IMG/VR virus record: IMGVR_UViG_2724679237_000005
Coordinates: 1-64,000 of that record
Direction: 5' to 3' (one strand)
DNA: 64,000 nt
Origin: a virus
Taxonomy: Duplodnaviria; Heunggongvirae; Uroviricota; Caudoviricetes
Numbering within the stretch: the first letter of the stretch is position 1; every line of letters begins with the position of its first letter. The position numbers were made by a program. Below are positions 51,001 through 60,000 of this stretch, piece by piece.

Positions 51001-54000
51001 TTGTCCGAGTTATCGCCTTGTAATGCTTTTGCTTCCAAAAATGCGCGAGGCGTGGCGAATCCTGTCAGCTCCGCAAATTGCTCAAAATTAACCTGCTTGT
51101 TTTTGGCGTCTTCACGCAGGCTTACCCAGCTTACGTTTTCACGAACTAACTGAAGCCAGTCGCTATCGCCTGTTAACAGATAGATGTGTTCAACGGTTGG
51201 CTGCGGTGCCATGCGGGATACCAGCAGCCCGGCCAGATCATCCGCTTCTGCATCTTTTGCAATGAGTTGGGTAACTCCAAGCGCGGTCATCATTTTGAGG
51301 ATGTATGGCTTCTGGATAGCAAAGCCTTCCTTCATCTTTTTCATATCAGGATCGTCGTCGCGATTTGCTTTGTAGTCCGGGTAAAAGTCGCGACGCTTGT
51401 CACTAAATCCATCCCAAAGAATCATAGGTCGGGCATGGAGGATGGAGGCATAACGACGGACGTTCTTAACAAAGCCGAAAGCAGCCTGTACTTCCATTTC
51501 GCCGTTGTGCAATTTGTCAGATTGTTGGTGGTAATAACCCAGGCTATTGCCATCTACGAAGAGATAATTCACCGGTACATTCCTTCCAAAAAGTAAGGCG
51601 TCCGTAGACGCCTTACTGGTCACGTAATGGGATTACAGAGAGTCCAGCTCTCTCAGTAGGTCATCCAGACCTTCATCTTCCGTCGCAGATGCGGTTGCTA
51701 CAGATGTCGCTGCGACTGCTTCAGACTCTTTGACTGATACGGCAACGGCAGCGGAACTTGCCTCTGGTTTAAATTCAGTTTCAACGGCACGGAGGATTTC
51801 TTCATCAACCAGACTGGTTGGTTCAGAAGCCGGTGTGTGCGCGGTTGCTACAGCCGTCGCTCCTTCTGTATGACCAGTGACAGAGCCAAATCCAGGTAGT
51901 GCCGCAGCCGATGTTTTCGCGGTTGAGGAAATTGCTGGTGCAGATGCTGCGGCAGTTGGTGCAGCGATGCCAATCAGACGACCCATAGTGCGAACTGTCG
52001 ACAGAAGACGAGTTTCATCAGCCTGATTTGCGTATGCGATCAGATCATGCTGGGTGTTCCAGAATTTATCTTCGATATCGCCTTTGTAGACTTTACGCTT
52101 AGGCGAGACGTCATATTTGGTATCGCGACCAGAGCCAGTACGTTTAATCAGGAATGCGTAGCCTTCCTCTTTGCTCAGTGGATTGCCGATATCATCAGCG
52201 ATGTCTTCGGTGATTGCTTTGCAGATATCATCGAATACAGTAGACGGCAGCTCGATTAACTGGCATTTCTCAGCATCTGCGAAATCCTCACGAGCAGAAA
52301 GAATGCCGTTGACCAGGTAGCGAGGAGTGGCACGCATTTGACCGATGCGTTCTTCCATTGCTTTGTTACCCTTGTGACGAGCGCGACCTTCCATCACCAT
52401 TTCGCATAGCTGACAAGCGCGACCGTGAGTATGTTGCTCACAAATATAAGCGTTGGTTGCTTCTTTACCTTCCTCGTTCTGATACTTAACGTAGTGCATA
52501 CCGAAAGTCTGGAAGAACTTACCGTTTGGGTCGTCTTTATTCGGGAAGATGCGGATATAGTTGACGCCGTCTTTTAAGCGAGTCAGATCAACGTTGTTAC
52601 CACGTTTGGCGGCAATGTCTTCACGAGTTTTGTTAAGCAAATCAAGTAATGTCTTAGACATGTGTTTCTCCTTGTTGTGATTTGGCCGATGGCGCTATGC
52701 GCGTTGGGCTTTCGTTCATTCGTGGCTCTTTCGAGCTGTTAAATGATAGATCAGTACTTACTTATTATCTATCAAAAATCAACGGGGAGTAATAAAGCGT
52801 TCAGAGCCTAATCGCTCTAATTCAACGATGGCCATCTTTGACGCCTGAACGATCATGTCTCGGCGATGCGAAAAGGCGGCGACAGCATGTTTGTATATGT
52901 CTGCGATGTGCCGTGCTTCATCCAACTTCTGCCGTTTAGACAGATACTGTGGGTTTGTTTTAACCTTAGCGTCCAGTACAGATTCGTTGAACTTAATGCC
53001 GTTCATACTCAAGTTCTTACGCTCTGTGTCGTATAGCTTTGCTTCAACAGCTTCAAGGTTAAGTTTTGCTTCTGCGACACTTCTTTCTGCATGGGCGAGT
53101 TTTGAGCCATATTCCATCAACAGGCGGGGTTGTCTACGCCAGACTTCTTCCAGATTGTCTCGGTCAAACTCGAGATCAGACATTATTTTCTCGTAAATAT
53201 CGGCGATCATGCGCATTTCCTTATCACTTATCATTTTGTATTGATTATATCATTGTAATGATGAGGCAATGAGCTTGAAGATAGGGGGGGGAGGGGATAA
53301 GGGAAAACATGGCCTTTATGGCCATGTTTATTGGATCACGTCTTAATAGTTTCTGCTACGTCGGCTAATATCGCTTCTAGTCGTTCTCCCTCTTCAGGTC
53401 TGAAGTAAAGAATGTTGGGGTTAAACCCGTAAAAGACAGTAACGTCAAGGTCTGGAAGATACTCCTTCCTGCCGACCAAATCGGATGGCTTGTTTTTGTT
53501 GTTAAACAATGCCGTTGCCCGGCTGCCACACGTCAGCACATAGGTCGGACGCACCAGATTGATCTCTTCACGTATAAAGTCGGTGAACTGGCCGATCTCG
53601 TCTTTGGTGTAGTCTTTTTCTTTGTCTTTAACCTTCTTGCAAACGCCTGTGACATAGAGATCGCCCATGCGTAAATCTCCAGCCGTCAATAGCTTGGCCT
53701 TAAAGTCGTCGTATCCGTTCTCCATAAAGTAACCGGTTCGAGCATCATTGCCGTTCGCATTGTCCAGAATGATCATGATTTTCGGCTTAATACCAATGCT
53801 GGGGCGGATTAGTTCATCACCTAAGCCCATTTCAGCCGCCATCCGCGTCATGAGTACGTTAATTTCAGCCGAACGTTTGGGGTTCATCTCAAACGAACGT
53901 GAGGCTTTAACTGCGTCTATGACAAGATTTCCCATCAATTCAGCCTGGTCGCGTAGGCGCTCTGGAGCAGTTGCTGGCAGACTACCTGGCTCGATGGATG

Positions 54001-57000: not shown

Positions 57001-60000
57001 GATCGATTCGTAATAAGCGGGATAGAACGCCACTGGCTCTATTTTCAATGCGCTGGCGACTTTCATCGCCCGGACGTTAATCTGGTCGTAGAATGGGGTA
57101 GGGTGCGGATAAACCACACTATAGAAGTTGTCTTTTCCACCCGCTGTAATCAGTGTGCTTATGATTTTTGCAAAATCGTTGCGTTGGAACACGCTACCGA
57201 TGTCGGAAGTAAGCAGGATGATGTTGCCTTTGGCATATGTAGAAACCAACTGTTCGAGCGAGAGACGCGGTACAAAGTAGAACTGTTCTCGTGTGTTGGC
57301 CGCCGTCATTAGTTCGCAGATGTCGCGATATCCTTGCTCATTTTTAATTAGAGCGGTAAACGAGTAGTTACGTCCCCGCTCTAATGATTCCATACATCTC
57401 ATAGATTCTTTAGCAAGTTTAGCCCGGTGCTCGTATGTGGGATCATCAACAATGTTTAGTTTCACACCACAAATAACCGCCATGTCGTCACCAGCGGCAC
57501 GTTGTAGTGGAATAACGCTCGCAATATTCATGCTATCTGCTGAAATTACAGCGGTGTAGCCAGCTTCTCTGGCAATCTTCACCGCGTTTTCTGCTTTTAG
57601 AGCCGACTCCCCAAGTGAGAAGTCAGTTCGAACCATCAGTGCCTTCATGTGTTTTTACCTTTCTGGTTTTTTTGATTTTGTCATTGGGGAAGCCTACGAA
57701 CTTCCCATGCATCGAAATCGCAACTTCTTTTGCTGATTGGTGACAATCGGGCTTGTCTGGACACACCAGACAAGCCTTACCAGTTTCAGAAGCAGCGATA
57801 AGAGAGCCGAAACATCCTTTACGCACGATCAACCAAATATTTTTTGAACAACTTCACGAGCCGCTTGTGCAGAAGCTGAAGGGAGTTTGTTAATGAAAGA
57901 ACGCTCAATACCTGTCACAAAGTCGCCTCGCATCATTCCAATCTTGGCCGACAACAAAAGTTCACGAGGGCCAATTGGCTGACTGATAAGGTGTTCTTCG
58001 TATCCATCGCGAACGATACCGGCAAACTTAACCATCTTTTCTGCGTATTCATCCACGATACCGGCATTTATCAACATGTTGATCTCTGCCTCTTTGCTCA
58101 TGTATTTCACATTCGAAACGATGCCAAAACGCGAAAAGTTCGCGGCGTTCTGGATGTTTGTACCCTGGTACAAGCCGGTTTCATCACCAGATCCGTTCGT
58201 GTTGCCAGTGCCAATGAAAGCAAACCGTTCATGCGGAGTAATGCGACGCCATTCTGGAGTCGCCTCTTTGATGACCAACGCTTCACCTTCCAGCACTGGC
58301 TGATACACGCCAAGAATCTGTGGAAACGCAAAGTCGTATTCATCCGCGAGGTAAACCCAGCCATGCTTCATTGCGAGCGCAAGCAAGCCAGGTTCGAAAT
58401 ACGTAGAGCCATCACGCGCCAGAATTTGCCCCGTAACATGTGCCTCTTCCATTGATGCTGTATGTTGGGCACGGATCAACGGACGATTGAGCAAAGCACA
58501 TAGCTGTGTAGGCAATGACGATTTGCCTGTTCCTGCATGACCCCACAAATAGCCAGGTATGCCAAGTTCAAGCATCATGAAAATATCTTTGATCAGTTCG
58601 AAGTCGCCATATACGTAGCCTTTCTTCACTTCGGGAACGAACTCTGGAAACGGCGTATTGACGTTGACGCTAACCATGAGCGGCGTCCCACGTTTTGTTC
58701 CGAGTTCTTCCACCGTTACGTCTAGCAGTTCGTGAGCTGCGACCAGATCTGTCTTGTACTCAACTGTGCCTGTGTAGCCTGGGCTACTGGTCACGCCAGA
58801 TGATTTGGCCATTTCGCTTTTTTGCTCGGCACGTTTAGCTTGAATTGCATCAAGTGCCTTTTTCGATAGCGTTGGCTCATCTGGAAACTGTGTTGTGTAC
58901 ATTTTCAGTACGGTGTCAGGATCGGCATCTTTTACTGACTCAGGAATGCCCTCGCAATTACCATTGGCTACATGGGACTTAAAATAGTGAAATGATTTTC
59001 CGCACCACTTGCAAACAAGGTAATCAGAAGGATTTTTTTCATTTTGCAGTGCAGTAGTCGTCATGCGTTTTTCCTTTGTTTTCTAATGAGCGTTCAACTT
59101 CTTATATAAATATATCATTAACTATCGTAAGTGGTTACTTATCATTAAGGCTGTTTTGTTCACTTTAAAATGATACGAGATAGTTCAGTAACTACAGATG
59201 AACCAAGACTATCAACGCTCGTTACCAGGGCATGATTTGAGTAAAATCTCTCCGGTGCGTCAGTCATGATGCCAATTGCCATCAAATCAATGTCAGTCTG
59301 CGTTTCAATTTGTTTCGCAACCGAACGCAAATGAGCGTCAAAACCTCTCCCAACAGCCCACGGCGCGCCATCACTCAGAACAAGCATGATCTTCCTGTCC
59401 TCCATGCGACCGGAAAATAACGATGCAAGGCTGGCTATGCTTTCACCATCCACGTTATTAAGAAGTGGGAATGTGTAGCCTACGCACCCCATACGTGAGC
59501 GAACTTCGCGAGAATTTACCTTTTCATTCCAATTTTTGATGATAGGTAGCATTAAAGATTCAAAGCGAGAGAACTCATACTTGACAGCCTTAAGTTCTCC
59601 TGCCGCCATATGACTACCAAATGTAGTGAAGCCGGTGATAATGTTGGGAACATTTATTCGATCAAGGGCATCGGCGATGGTATATGCACTTGCAAGAGCC
59701 AATTGTATCGTTATACCACTCATTGAACCTGATAAATCAATCACTTGTTGAACACAGGCGTTAACGGCTTTAGATTCTTCTTTTTTACGAAACACGCGAT
59801 CATCATTCATTGCTAATCTGTAGATACTAGAACCATGAATGCGCCCCCGACGCTGGCCCGGTATAAACTGAACTCTGTTTCTGCTTGCTATTGCTCGCTC
59901 TAGGTCTTTTGCCAGCGTCGACGAAACACCTGACGAAAGATGCTTTTCAATATATTTGTCGAAGAGCTGGTTGCCTTCAGGAACGATGCGATAGCGGCTG

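Follow-up and report, generated by a model that had tools for sequence, protein, structure and literature searches.

The subject of this report is a replicative DNA polymerase gene that is present in two parts in a phage-plasmid. The DNA analyzed (the window, below) is a stretch of 64,000 nucleotides (nt) covering positions 1 to 64,000 of IMG/VR virus record IMGVR_UViG_2724679237_000005 (Caudoviricetes), which megablast against phage records identified as an SSU5/pHCM2-like phage-plasmid of E. coli. Its gene for a DnaE-type (family-C) polymerase consists of two open reading frames (ORFs), dnaE-N and dnaE-C, and a free-standing homing-type endonuclease gene lies between them (Table 1). A sequence-only reading of this DNA had described dnaE as split by a free-standing HNH/NUMOD endonuclease gene, and the three minus-strand ORFs and their Pfam domains agree with this description. 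We consider here the insert within which the break falls, its likeness to DnaE split inteins, and what the arrangement suggests about the polymerase and the spread of the element.

Anatomy of the locus and its unsplit relatives

In Pfam searches, dnaE-N matched PHP, DNA_pol3_alpha (E 4e-74), and DNA_pol3_finger (E 2e-45); the endonuclease matched HNH_3 (E 7.9e-8, residues 165-205) and NUMOD3 (E 2.7e-6), both above the gathering score; and dnaE-C matched HHH_6 (E 5e-17). The PHP, palm/NTPase, fingers, and helix-hairpin-helix (HhH) domains follow one another in family-C order over both ORFs, with the FNKSH motif located 33 residues into DnaE-C. The fragment pair is collinear with unsplit proteins of 1172 amino acids (aa) and with the DNA polymerase III (Pol III) alpha subunits of E. 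coli and Taq. The endonuclease ORF fills the region between the fragments, with 48 nt ahead of it and none behind, and its stop overlaps the dnaE-C start in ATGA, as had been noted before. An Rfam search of positions 53000-58000 (E up to 1) gave no group I or group II intron and only two chance miRNA/snoRNA matches, which upholds the earlier view that there is no room for intron RNA.

Uninterrupted dnaE genes with products of 1168-1172 aa are found in Escherichia phages PhiR41_1 and Cyrano, Salmonella phage SSU5, and plasmid pHH107-1. The fragments of the window align end to end with the uninterrupted product of these relatives, so that the comparison proposed in the sequence-only reading does find unsplit alleles in near-identical elements. 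The same endonuclease splits dnaE in identical fashion in 25 plasmids from E. coli, Enterobacter, and Cronobacter, at identities down to 91%. Among 5426 complete E. coli genomes, 243 have a plasmid dnaE of this type, and the split allele is present in 23 of the 243.

Table 1. Features of the split dnaE locus and further features of the window (positions count from the first letter of the window; aa, amino acids; IntN and IntC, N- and C-terminal halves of a split intein; Npu, Nostoc punctiforme DnaE intein)
Feature	Position	Strand	Description
dnaE-N	55285-57648	minus	787 aa; PHP, palm/NTPase, and most of the fingers (ORF list and Pfam)
Endonuclease gene, free-standing, homing type, family A	54502-55236	minus	244 aa; NUMOD3 in the N-terminal DNA-binding region; C-terminal HNH_3 at about 54622-54744
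dnaE-C	53336-54505	minus	389 aa; rest of the fingers with FNKSH, HhH, and a uracil-DNA glycosylase family-4-like end
Spacer, dnaE-N stop to endonuclease ATG	55237-55284	minus	48 nt; contains one copy of the TAAGAAAACAAnTTGTTT motif
ATGA overlap	54502-54505	minus	endonuclease stop and dnaE-C start
Shine-Dalgarno sequence of dnaE-C, GAGGTG	54511-54516	minus	within the 3' end of the endonuclease ORF
Putative intein relic, N part	55288-55422	minus	dnaE-N residues 743-787, WVTVSLDDG...ADITSFDI; resembles the half of DnaE IntN from block B to its end
Putative intein relic, C part, MKITSVVEESNG	54470-54505	minus	resembles the first beta-strand of IntC; Npu (M)IKIATRKYLG
Recombination (co-conversion-like) tract, approximate	54415-55950	minus	from sliding nt identity to unsplit alleles
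Spacer copy of the motif, TAAGAAAACAATTTGTTT	55251-55268		between the dnaE-N stop and the endonuclease ATG
TAAGAAAACAAnTTGTTT copies	10098, 11764, 12248, 14331, 14377(+), 25467, 26181, 26910, 37130, 55251, 61283(+)	mostly minus	
Uracil-DNA glycosylase family-4-like end of DnaE-C	53489-53695		
Cys-rich ORF (…CLVCPDKPDC…)	57623-57832	minus	69 aa; 26-nt overlap with the dnaE-N start

The insert at the break and its likeness to DnaE inteins

The split polymerase carries an insert of about 57 aa at position ~733/734 of E. coli Pol III alpha, between 'GAEKNG' and 'INAEL', and the gene break lies inside this insert. When aligned to E. coli alpha, the segment …RAEEG of DnaE-N falls on 'GAEKNG' (~729-735), the segment …NGLTHERAEEIW of DnaE-C falls on 'NGINAELAMKIF', and FNKSH falls on residues 756-760. 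YQEQ and FNKSH are 70-71 aa apart in insert-less proteins and 118-126 aa apart in those with the insert. At the break, the insert takes the form of a C-terminal tail of ~45 residues on DnaE-N and an N-terminal head of ~11 residues on DnaE-C, both of which are missing from cellular and many phage DnaE proteins.

Profiles of the insert were searched against all 177,635 distinct PDB sequences. With a profile of 13 inserts, the top 14 matches were DnaE split inteins (E 4.6e-4 to 0.07) and nothing else scored below 0.38. When the profile was built from 11 more diverse split alleles, these 14 matches came up again, now at E 3e-7 to 7e-5, with the next match at 0.056. The DnaE intein of Nostoc punctiforme (Npu), taken from the PDB 2KEQ/4KL5 sequence after its identity had been verified, served as the reference. 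The insert aligns to intein residues ~55-110, that is, to the second half of the N-terminal intein half (IntN) and the first strand of the C-terminal half (IntC). In the fused constructs 2KEQ, 4KL5, and 7QIL, the profile alignment crosses the IntN/IntC junction; it runs from block B (LEDGS.IRATKDHKF) through …IDEIFERELDLMRV and over the junction into (M)IKIATRK. The DnaE-N stop lies no more than ~3 residues from where IntN naturally ends, and the head of DnaE-C, MKI…, matches the beginning of IntC. These results do not fit the earlier picture of an intein-less gene broken at any position, as the break falls where IntN and IntC would meet in an apparently intein-derived relic.

Structural models pointed in the same direction. 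In an AlphaFold2 model of an unsplit 259-aa fragment (P0001; predicted local distance difference test score, pLDDT, 84, and 75-79 in the insert), the insert is folded as strand-strand-strand-strand-helix-strand. In a Foldseek search of this model against the PDB, DnaE inteins took ranks 16-19 and were the best-supported matches after Pol III alpha, at probability 0.96-0.99, root-mean-square deviation 3.2-3.9 A, and 42-65 columns, with weak E values of 0.17-0.8. The two chains at ranks 14-15 had a probability of 0.07, and gp41-1 and DnaB inteins came next. A model of the insert only (pLDDT 76) again placed DnaE inteins first. The putative Hint fold amounts to only about half of the domain (profile E 3e-7 to DnaE inteins; Foldseek probability 0.96-0.99 with E 0.17-0.4). 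Collectively, these results make it likely that the insert is homologous to DnaE split inteins.

The relic-only model (m45aea61940b9) also matched a phage T4 topoisomerase II chain (8yo4_C / 8yo3_C) with 27% identity, 48 columns, and a probability of 0.44-0.57, possibly by chance. The large subunit of T4 topoisomerase is itself split by a mobile endonuclease cassette.

The relic is without the elements that carry out splicing. Nothing in it matches intein residues 1-55 with block A and Cys1, and its first residue is W, F, Y, M, Q, or T, directly after the DnaE 'GA..G'. The region of block B aligns (LEDGS.IRATKDHKF with L.DGst.kVHraakf), but the Thr of the TxxH motif has become His and its His has become Ala. 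No blocks F/G, terminal His-Asn, or conserved +1 nucleophile were found at its end, where DnaE resumes after the head; the sequence that follows, 'G[LM]S..A..IW', matches the 'NGINAELAMKIF' segment of E. coli alpha. Furthermore, unsplit alleles retain the fused relic as a permanent in-frame insert. Because all these elements are gone and the fused relic is permanent, protein splicing is excluded on the evidence of the motifs. The sequence-only reading was thus correct that splice motifs are absent, but not that no intein is involved, as the profile matches DnaE split inteins. The insert is a relative of inteins and not an intein, because it does not show the three defining features for which it was tested.

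True inteins are present in related phage DnaE proteins at three other sites in the same fingers region. An IMG/VR locus (L207) has a LAGLIDADG intein at YGVM/C...HN/CFQEQIM, P0157 has an intein end at ...VVVHN/CMGKKD, and a true IntC, ...FVVHN/SHAVAY, is present on the free C fragment P0254.

Two short similar stretches near the fragment ends, RAEEGW and RAEEIW, had been considered a trace of duplication or repair at the insertion site. This idea is rejected because both are native DnaE segments that occur in unsplit alleles; their counterparts are 'GAEKNG' and 'LAMKIF' in E. coli alpha and QAQAGW and KAKEIW in uninterrupted alleles. ITS is repeated at the break (ADITSFDI before the stop, and MKITSVV), with the same residues and different third codon positions. 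It is the better duplication candidate of the two pairs, yet the two paired strands of the relic account for it.

Recurrence of the break and probable movement of the cassette

A survey of ~330 loci from GTDB genomes, IMG/VR, and metagenomes showed dnaE in several states: unsplit and insert-less (most cellular and many phage DnaE); unsplit with a fused insert (SSU5 type, Cyrano type, and a longer L142/L144 type); split with an endonuclease; split with a decayed endonuclease (L148, L162); and split without an endonuclease (L004, L132/133, L135-141, L184), with spacers of 63-69 nt. The endonucleases, all at the same dnaE site, belong to two unrelated families: family A (window, L156, L177, L189), with members 36-40% identical, and family B (Klebsiella, Acinetobacter, L145, L158), with members 32-43% identical. 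Klebsiella/Enterobacter plasmids have the same break point with a different NUMOD4-HNH endonuclease of 231 aa, and Acinetobacter baumannii plasmids are broken at the same place with a third endonuclease gene of 191 aa. Buttiauxella plasmid p1WJP83 has no endonuclease; its DnaE-N ends in …ADITSFDI, its DnaE-C starts with MKITG…, and the two are 69 nt apart. Still present in the p1WJP83 spacer are the upstream leader, the start codon of the endonuclease, and roughly the final 17 nt of its ORF, among them the Shine-Dalgarno sequence, which is AAGGTG in this allele. In the Acinetobacter-type IMG/VR contigs L148 and L162, the family-B endonuclease has shrunk to a 63-aa remnant ORF with the split retained, and the 226 nt from the DnaE-N stop to the DnaE-C reading frame offer a snapshot of endonuclease decay.

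All split alleles share a tail end of the form …EA[MIF]xxxx[DE][IV]xx[FY]xx followed by the stop and a head of the form M[KA][KIV]xx[IVL]…G[LM]S, and the same break with these signatures spans lineages that are only 39-47% identical. In a search of DnaE-C against 1.84 billion representative proteins, with counts made partly by hand, free-standing C fragments with such heads made up ~29 of ~75 complete 50%-identity representatives (E ≤ 1e-30). Most full-length representatives in this census were insert-less, and two or three had the fused insert. Relic and break together are present in about one third or more of this clade of phage DnaE. An endonuclease is present at the break in the window, as the sequence-only reading had it, but the split cannot be assigned to this endonuclease in particular, as the same break occurs with the other HNH family, with a decayed endonuclease, and with none. 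The possibility raised there that the two ORFs are normally separate genes in homologs proved true in part: endonuclease-less splits exist, yet the near relatives of the window are uninterrupted. Apart from these alleles, P0087 from Klebsiella-type plasmid contigs is apparently a deletion/fusion variant of 304 aa, in which the first ~74 DnaE-C residues (MKIAKVISEQEGLS...) are joined to a RecA-like domain (PF00154).

Comparison of nucleotide sequences suggested how the window acquired its cassette. The first ~1700 nt of dnaE-N are 97-100% identical to the unsplit genes of pHH107-1 and PhiR41_1, and over the last ~650 nt identity falls from 92 to 80, 69, and 53% toward the stop. On the other side of the endonuclease, the first 90 nt of dnaE-C are 44-51% identical to unsplit alleles, and identity is at once back to 96-100% afterwards. 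The borders of this tract were drawn from the protein alignment and sliding identity, as direct DNA alignment is unreliable with flanks of such divergence. Among the E. coli plasmids, the endonuclease is polymorphic for presence (23/243), with divergent flanks in a backbone that is 97-100% identical. The divergent tract looks like the import of a cassette with co-converted flanks into the backbone of unsplit relatives.

A similar pattern was seen over longer distances. The nearest relatives of the split loci L158, L189, and L145 are insert-less and unsplit at 75, 68, and 64% identity (distal regions), and split alleles of different groups are 39-47% identical to one another. The relic and the endonuclease appear to come and go together as a unit, independently of the backbone. 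The distribution of relic plus break is patchy on the polymerase tree, a midpoint-rooted neighbor-joining tree of 450 residues on which gains and losses are not rigorously separable.

The spacer ahead of the endonuclease contains an 18-nt motif, TAAGAAAACAAnTTGTTT, of which the window has 11 copies with up to 3 mismatches, compared to 0.1 expected; nine of them are on the minus strand. The whole spacer is unique within the window and only the 18-nt core recurs. The spacer and motif are preserved in the Buttiauxella allele that has no endonuclease; two related motif copies fill the spacers of L135, L137, and L138, which are likewise endonuclease-less; and a related sequence precedes the Acinetobacter endonuclease. 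The motif is a real, recurrent, near-palindromic plasmid motif. A consensus scan found no sigma-70 promoter in the spacer. The sequence-only reading had named it a class I promoter motif; its position after the DnaE-N stop is as described there, but it has no sigma-70 consensus, and promoter function is only putative. The pattern of copies suggests that the motif is probably a plasmid-wide regulatory site, a putative promoter or operator.

Selection on the fragments was assessed by the ratio of nonsynonymous to synonymous substitution (dN/dS; Nei-Gojobori) between the window and the Cronobacter, Enterobacter, and Buttiauxella alleles. The ratio was 0.03-0.05 for DnaE-N at a synonymous divergence (dS) of 0.6-1.1 and about 0.02 for DnaE-C at dS 1.0-1.65, and ORF lengths were equal across the four genera. 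These values indicate that both dnaE halves are under strong purifying selection. For the last 60 codons of DnaE-N, dN/dS was 0.05-0.12 and dS 0.1-0.45; for the endonuclease, they were 0.17-0.24 and 0.12-0.38. The endonuclease and the adjacent tail are thus much younger than the backbone, as their dS is far below that of dnaE.

These results bear on the view that the split dnaE is a decaying pseudogene with functionless fragments, in a plasmid replicated by host Pol III. Insertion of an endonuclease gene could have killed the polymerase gene, and some RefSeq records label the C part 'incomplete; missing N-terminus'. The low dN/dS on both fragments at such dS and the intact, equal-length ORFs of four genera make decay very unlikely. 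The Shine-Dalgarno sequence and start codon of dnaE-C are also conserved, and intact C fragments form ~29 divergent clusters; we give the pseudogene reading very little credence. RefSeq annotation of DnaE-C in the same allele (e.g., NZ_CP070135.1, L007) is inconsistent, with labels that include pseudogene, 'helix-hairpin-helix domain-containing protein', and 'uracil-DNA glycosylase'. Such labels from annotation pipelines would mask what is most likely a functional two-subunit polymerase.

Proposed mechanism, alternative explanations, and known systems

Taken together, the results make it probable that the window carries a mobile cassette with a non-splicing intein relic and that DnaE is made as two polypeptides which assemble non-covalently. 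The cassette would comprise ~45 codons and a stop, the spacer with its recurrent motif, the HNH/NUMOD3 gene, and a Shine-Dalgarno sequence, an ATG, and ~11 codons. Its terminal parts would be the degenerate remnant of a DnaE-type split intein (residues ~55-110), with gene break and endonuclease at the place where split inteins split and where intein endonuclease domains insert. A remnant without catalytic residues implies no splicing and, in turn, a polymerase of two polypeptides. DnaE-N (787 aa) and DnaE-C (389 aa) would be translated separately, the latter from its own Shine-Dalgarno sequence, with possible coupling to the endonuclease ORF. Production as two polypeptides, which the sequence-only reading had favored, is the most likely outcome because no intron was found, intein splice motifs are absent, and both halves appear to be under strong purifying selection.

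The fragments probably then reassemble non-covalently. Besides the native interface of the fingers domain, the relic halves most likely serve as association tails that zip together like IntN and IntC ahead of splicing. In most alleles the tail is acidic (-2 to -5 over 16 residues) and the head basic (+1 to +3), compared to -2/+3 in Npu. The endonuclease may spread the cassette among dnaE alleles through cleavage and recombinational repair, with the flanks dragged along. The cassette could thus be a mobile, non-splicing descendant of a "fractured gene," with intein halves that now act as association tails. In a broader and more tentative proposal, such cassettes would form a previously unrecognized class of mobile element: former DnaE inteins that have lost splicing, use the middle pieces of the Hint domain as a non-covalent clamp and two HNH families as an alternating motor, and may lose the endonuclease or be fused again. 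If this is true, these cassettes invade and break insert-less polymerase genes yet keep the broken enzyme working; loss of the endonuclease leaves a permanently split gene, re-fusion leaves a dead mini-insert, and the system is a natural case of split-intein association without splicing.

Several observations weigh against this reading. The charges in the window itself are -3/-1, so that complementarity of its own tail and head is weak. A phmmer search with the Npu intein against the six frames of the window gave no match, Pfam searches of single inserts gave no Hint family, and the similarity of relic and intein is significant at the profile level only. The Foldseek E values are weak, and the 3Di+AA score depends in part on sequence. 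All PDB matches lie in one intein family and therefore count as one independent hit. None of the ~330 loci has a complete intein at exactly this site, L207 being the only one with an intein, which lies elsewhere. Loss of both outer Hint lobes with the frame kept is an unusual history. Finally, the patchy distribution could have arisen through loss, i.e., through recombination with insert-less alleles.

The strongest competitor is a plain gene in pieces, in which an HNH gene was inserted into an intein-less dnaE, the insert is a lineage-specific beta-rich loop with a convergent likeness to inteins, and the native fingers interface alone joins the fragments. The split, the endonuclease, and the unsplit relatives are all real, no splice motifs are present, and neither single-sequence nor Pfam searches gave a Hint domain; the nrdA/mobE locus of phage Aeh1 is a precedent (PMC3045599). 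A convergent loop would not be expected to improve its profile match from E 4.6e-4 to 3e-7 when more diverse alleles are used, with DnaE inteins as the only matches, nor to be broken at the IntN/IntC boundary with a C head that aligns to the IntC start. Fold matches place DnaE inteins first outside Pol III, and insert and break always occur together in deep lineages and are jointly absent from the nearest relatives. We therefore regard this explanation as unlikely, although it retains more weight than the remaining ones. Restoration of a contiguous polymerase has also to be considered. Protein trans-splicing by an atypical minimal split intein, as in cyanobacterial DnaE, would suit a relic homologous to part of the DnaE split intein and split at the same place, and genuine split or contiguous inteins do occur in related phage DnaE. 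The relic has ~57 residues compared to the ~135 needed, it lacks an N-junction Cys/Ser, the block-B Thr/His, blocks F/G, His-Asn, and a conserved +1 nucleophile, and it stays in frame where it is fused; trans-splicing is accordingly most improbable. A self-splicing intron or ribosomal bypass, as in T4 gene 60, is just as improbable. Endonuclease ORFs are frequent in group I introns, the gene 60 hop belongs to a mobile cassette with mobA, and the endonuclease-less spacers measure just 63-69 nt. Against this, Rfam found no intron family, the intervening DNA is filled by an ORF, a hop of 780 nt has no precedent, and dnaE-C has its own Shine-Dalgarno sequence and ATG in every lineage, with Met heads in ~29 clusters.

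The preferred reading, a mobile cassette with a non-splicing relic, resembles several known systems. Fractured genes, described in 2009 (PMC2677866), have split-intein halves that flank an endonuclease gene, and their set includes three metagenomic DnaE loci. As in those genes, the order here is host-N plus intein-N, endonuclease, and intein-C plus host-C, at one locus and in one orientation, with the broken dnaE on either side of the endonuclease gene. The endonuclease stop overlaps the downstream start in both, and here the 3' end of the endonuclease supplies the dnaE-C start and Shine-Dalgarno sequence. Also shared are a conserved element upstream of the endonuclease that is kept after endonuclease loss, a phage-like context, and DnaE as host protein. 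In contrast, fractured genes (PMC2677866) have complete split inteins with six splicing motifs and expected trans-splicing, whereas complete intein halves are not present here and ~57 middle Hint residues, equivalent to residues ~55-110 only, are retained in the mature protein. Their endonucleases are GIY-YIG or Vsr-like, compared to two HNH families here. In Aeromonas phage Aeh1, mobE splits nrdA, and the split enzyme cannot assemble without the tails that the insertion created (Crona et al. 2010, PMC3045599). That system, too, is an essential replication-related gene split by a free-standing endonuclease; it uses no RNA or protein splicing and needs the C- and N-terminal tails brought by the element, and by analogy the same mechanism may apply here. 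Compared to Aeh1 NrdA, the tails here are recognizably intein-derived and belong to a family-C polymerase. The arrangement is also ancient and widespread; it occurs with either of two endonuclease families, without an endonuclease, and in re-fused form.

The closest relative of the relic in sequence and fold is the cyanobacterial split DnaE intein (Ssp/Npu; 1ZD7, 2KEQ, 4KL5, 4QFQ), which shares the host protein, the fingers neighborhood, and the equivalent Hint split residue. It is a complete, trans-splicing intein, and its two genes are far apart and have no endonuclease. We take its insertion point to be directly before CFNKSH; the relic site is ~21-24 residues upstream of this point.

Split family-B polymerases without splicing are known from T4-related phages (gp43A/gp43B) and Methanothermobacter (PolB). 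They work as two cooperating polypeptides, and in some T4-like phages the split is tied to inserted mobile DNA. They belong to another polymerase family, and to our knowledge no intein-derived module is present at their break.

The arrangement is not a canonical fractured gene, as the split intein is incomplete, yet it is more than a plain gene in pieces. We regard it as a fractured-gene-like cassette whose intein has decayed into a non-splicing relic where the gene of a family-C polymerase is broken; phage-plasmids and uncultured phages carry it widely. Essential genes split by homing endonucleases and fractured genes with split inteins were both known already, and here the two are combined. 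Full-text searches turned up no description of the arrangement, which, with incomplete coverage, is weak evidence of novelty. A catalytically empty intein module would be maintained by selection where an essential replicative polymerase is broken in two. The phage-plasmids concerned, from E. coli, Klebsiella, Enterobacter, Cronobacter, and Acinetobacter, are clinically common. If the relic halves keep the two fragments joined, a selfish element offsets the damage of its own insertion without splicing, and the remainder left after splicing loss is a missing stage of the intein life cycle. They would also be a natural minimal non-splicing heterodimerization pair derived from the fastest-associating split inteins, of use in protein engineering.

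Two further features lie at the outer ends of the locus. The uracil-DNA glycosylase family-4-like end of DnaE-C replaces the OB/tau-binding end of cellular DnaE; its Pfam match in the window is under the cut-off (E 0.0034), and relatives carry PF03167 and go by the name of uracil-DNA glycosylase in databases. The 69-aa Cys-rich ORF at the dnaE-N start has a homolog in SSU5, a small ORF annotated as SSU5_051.

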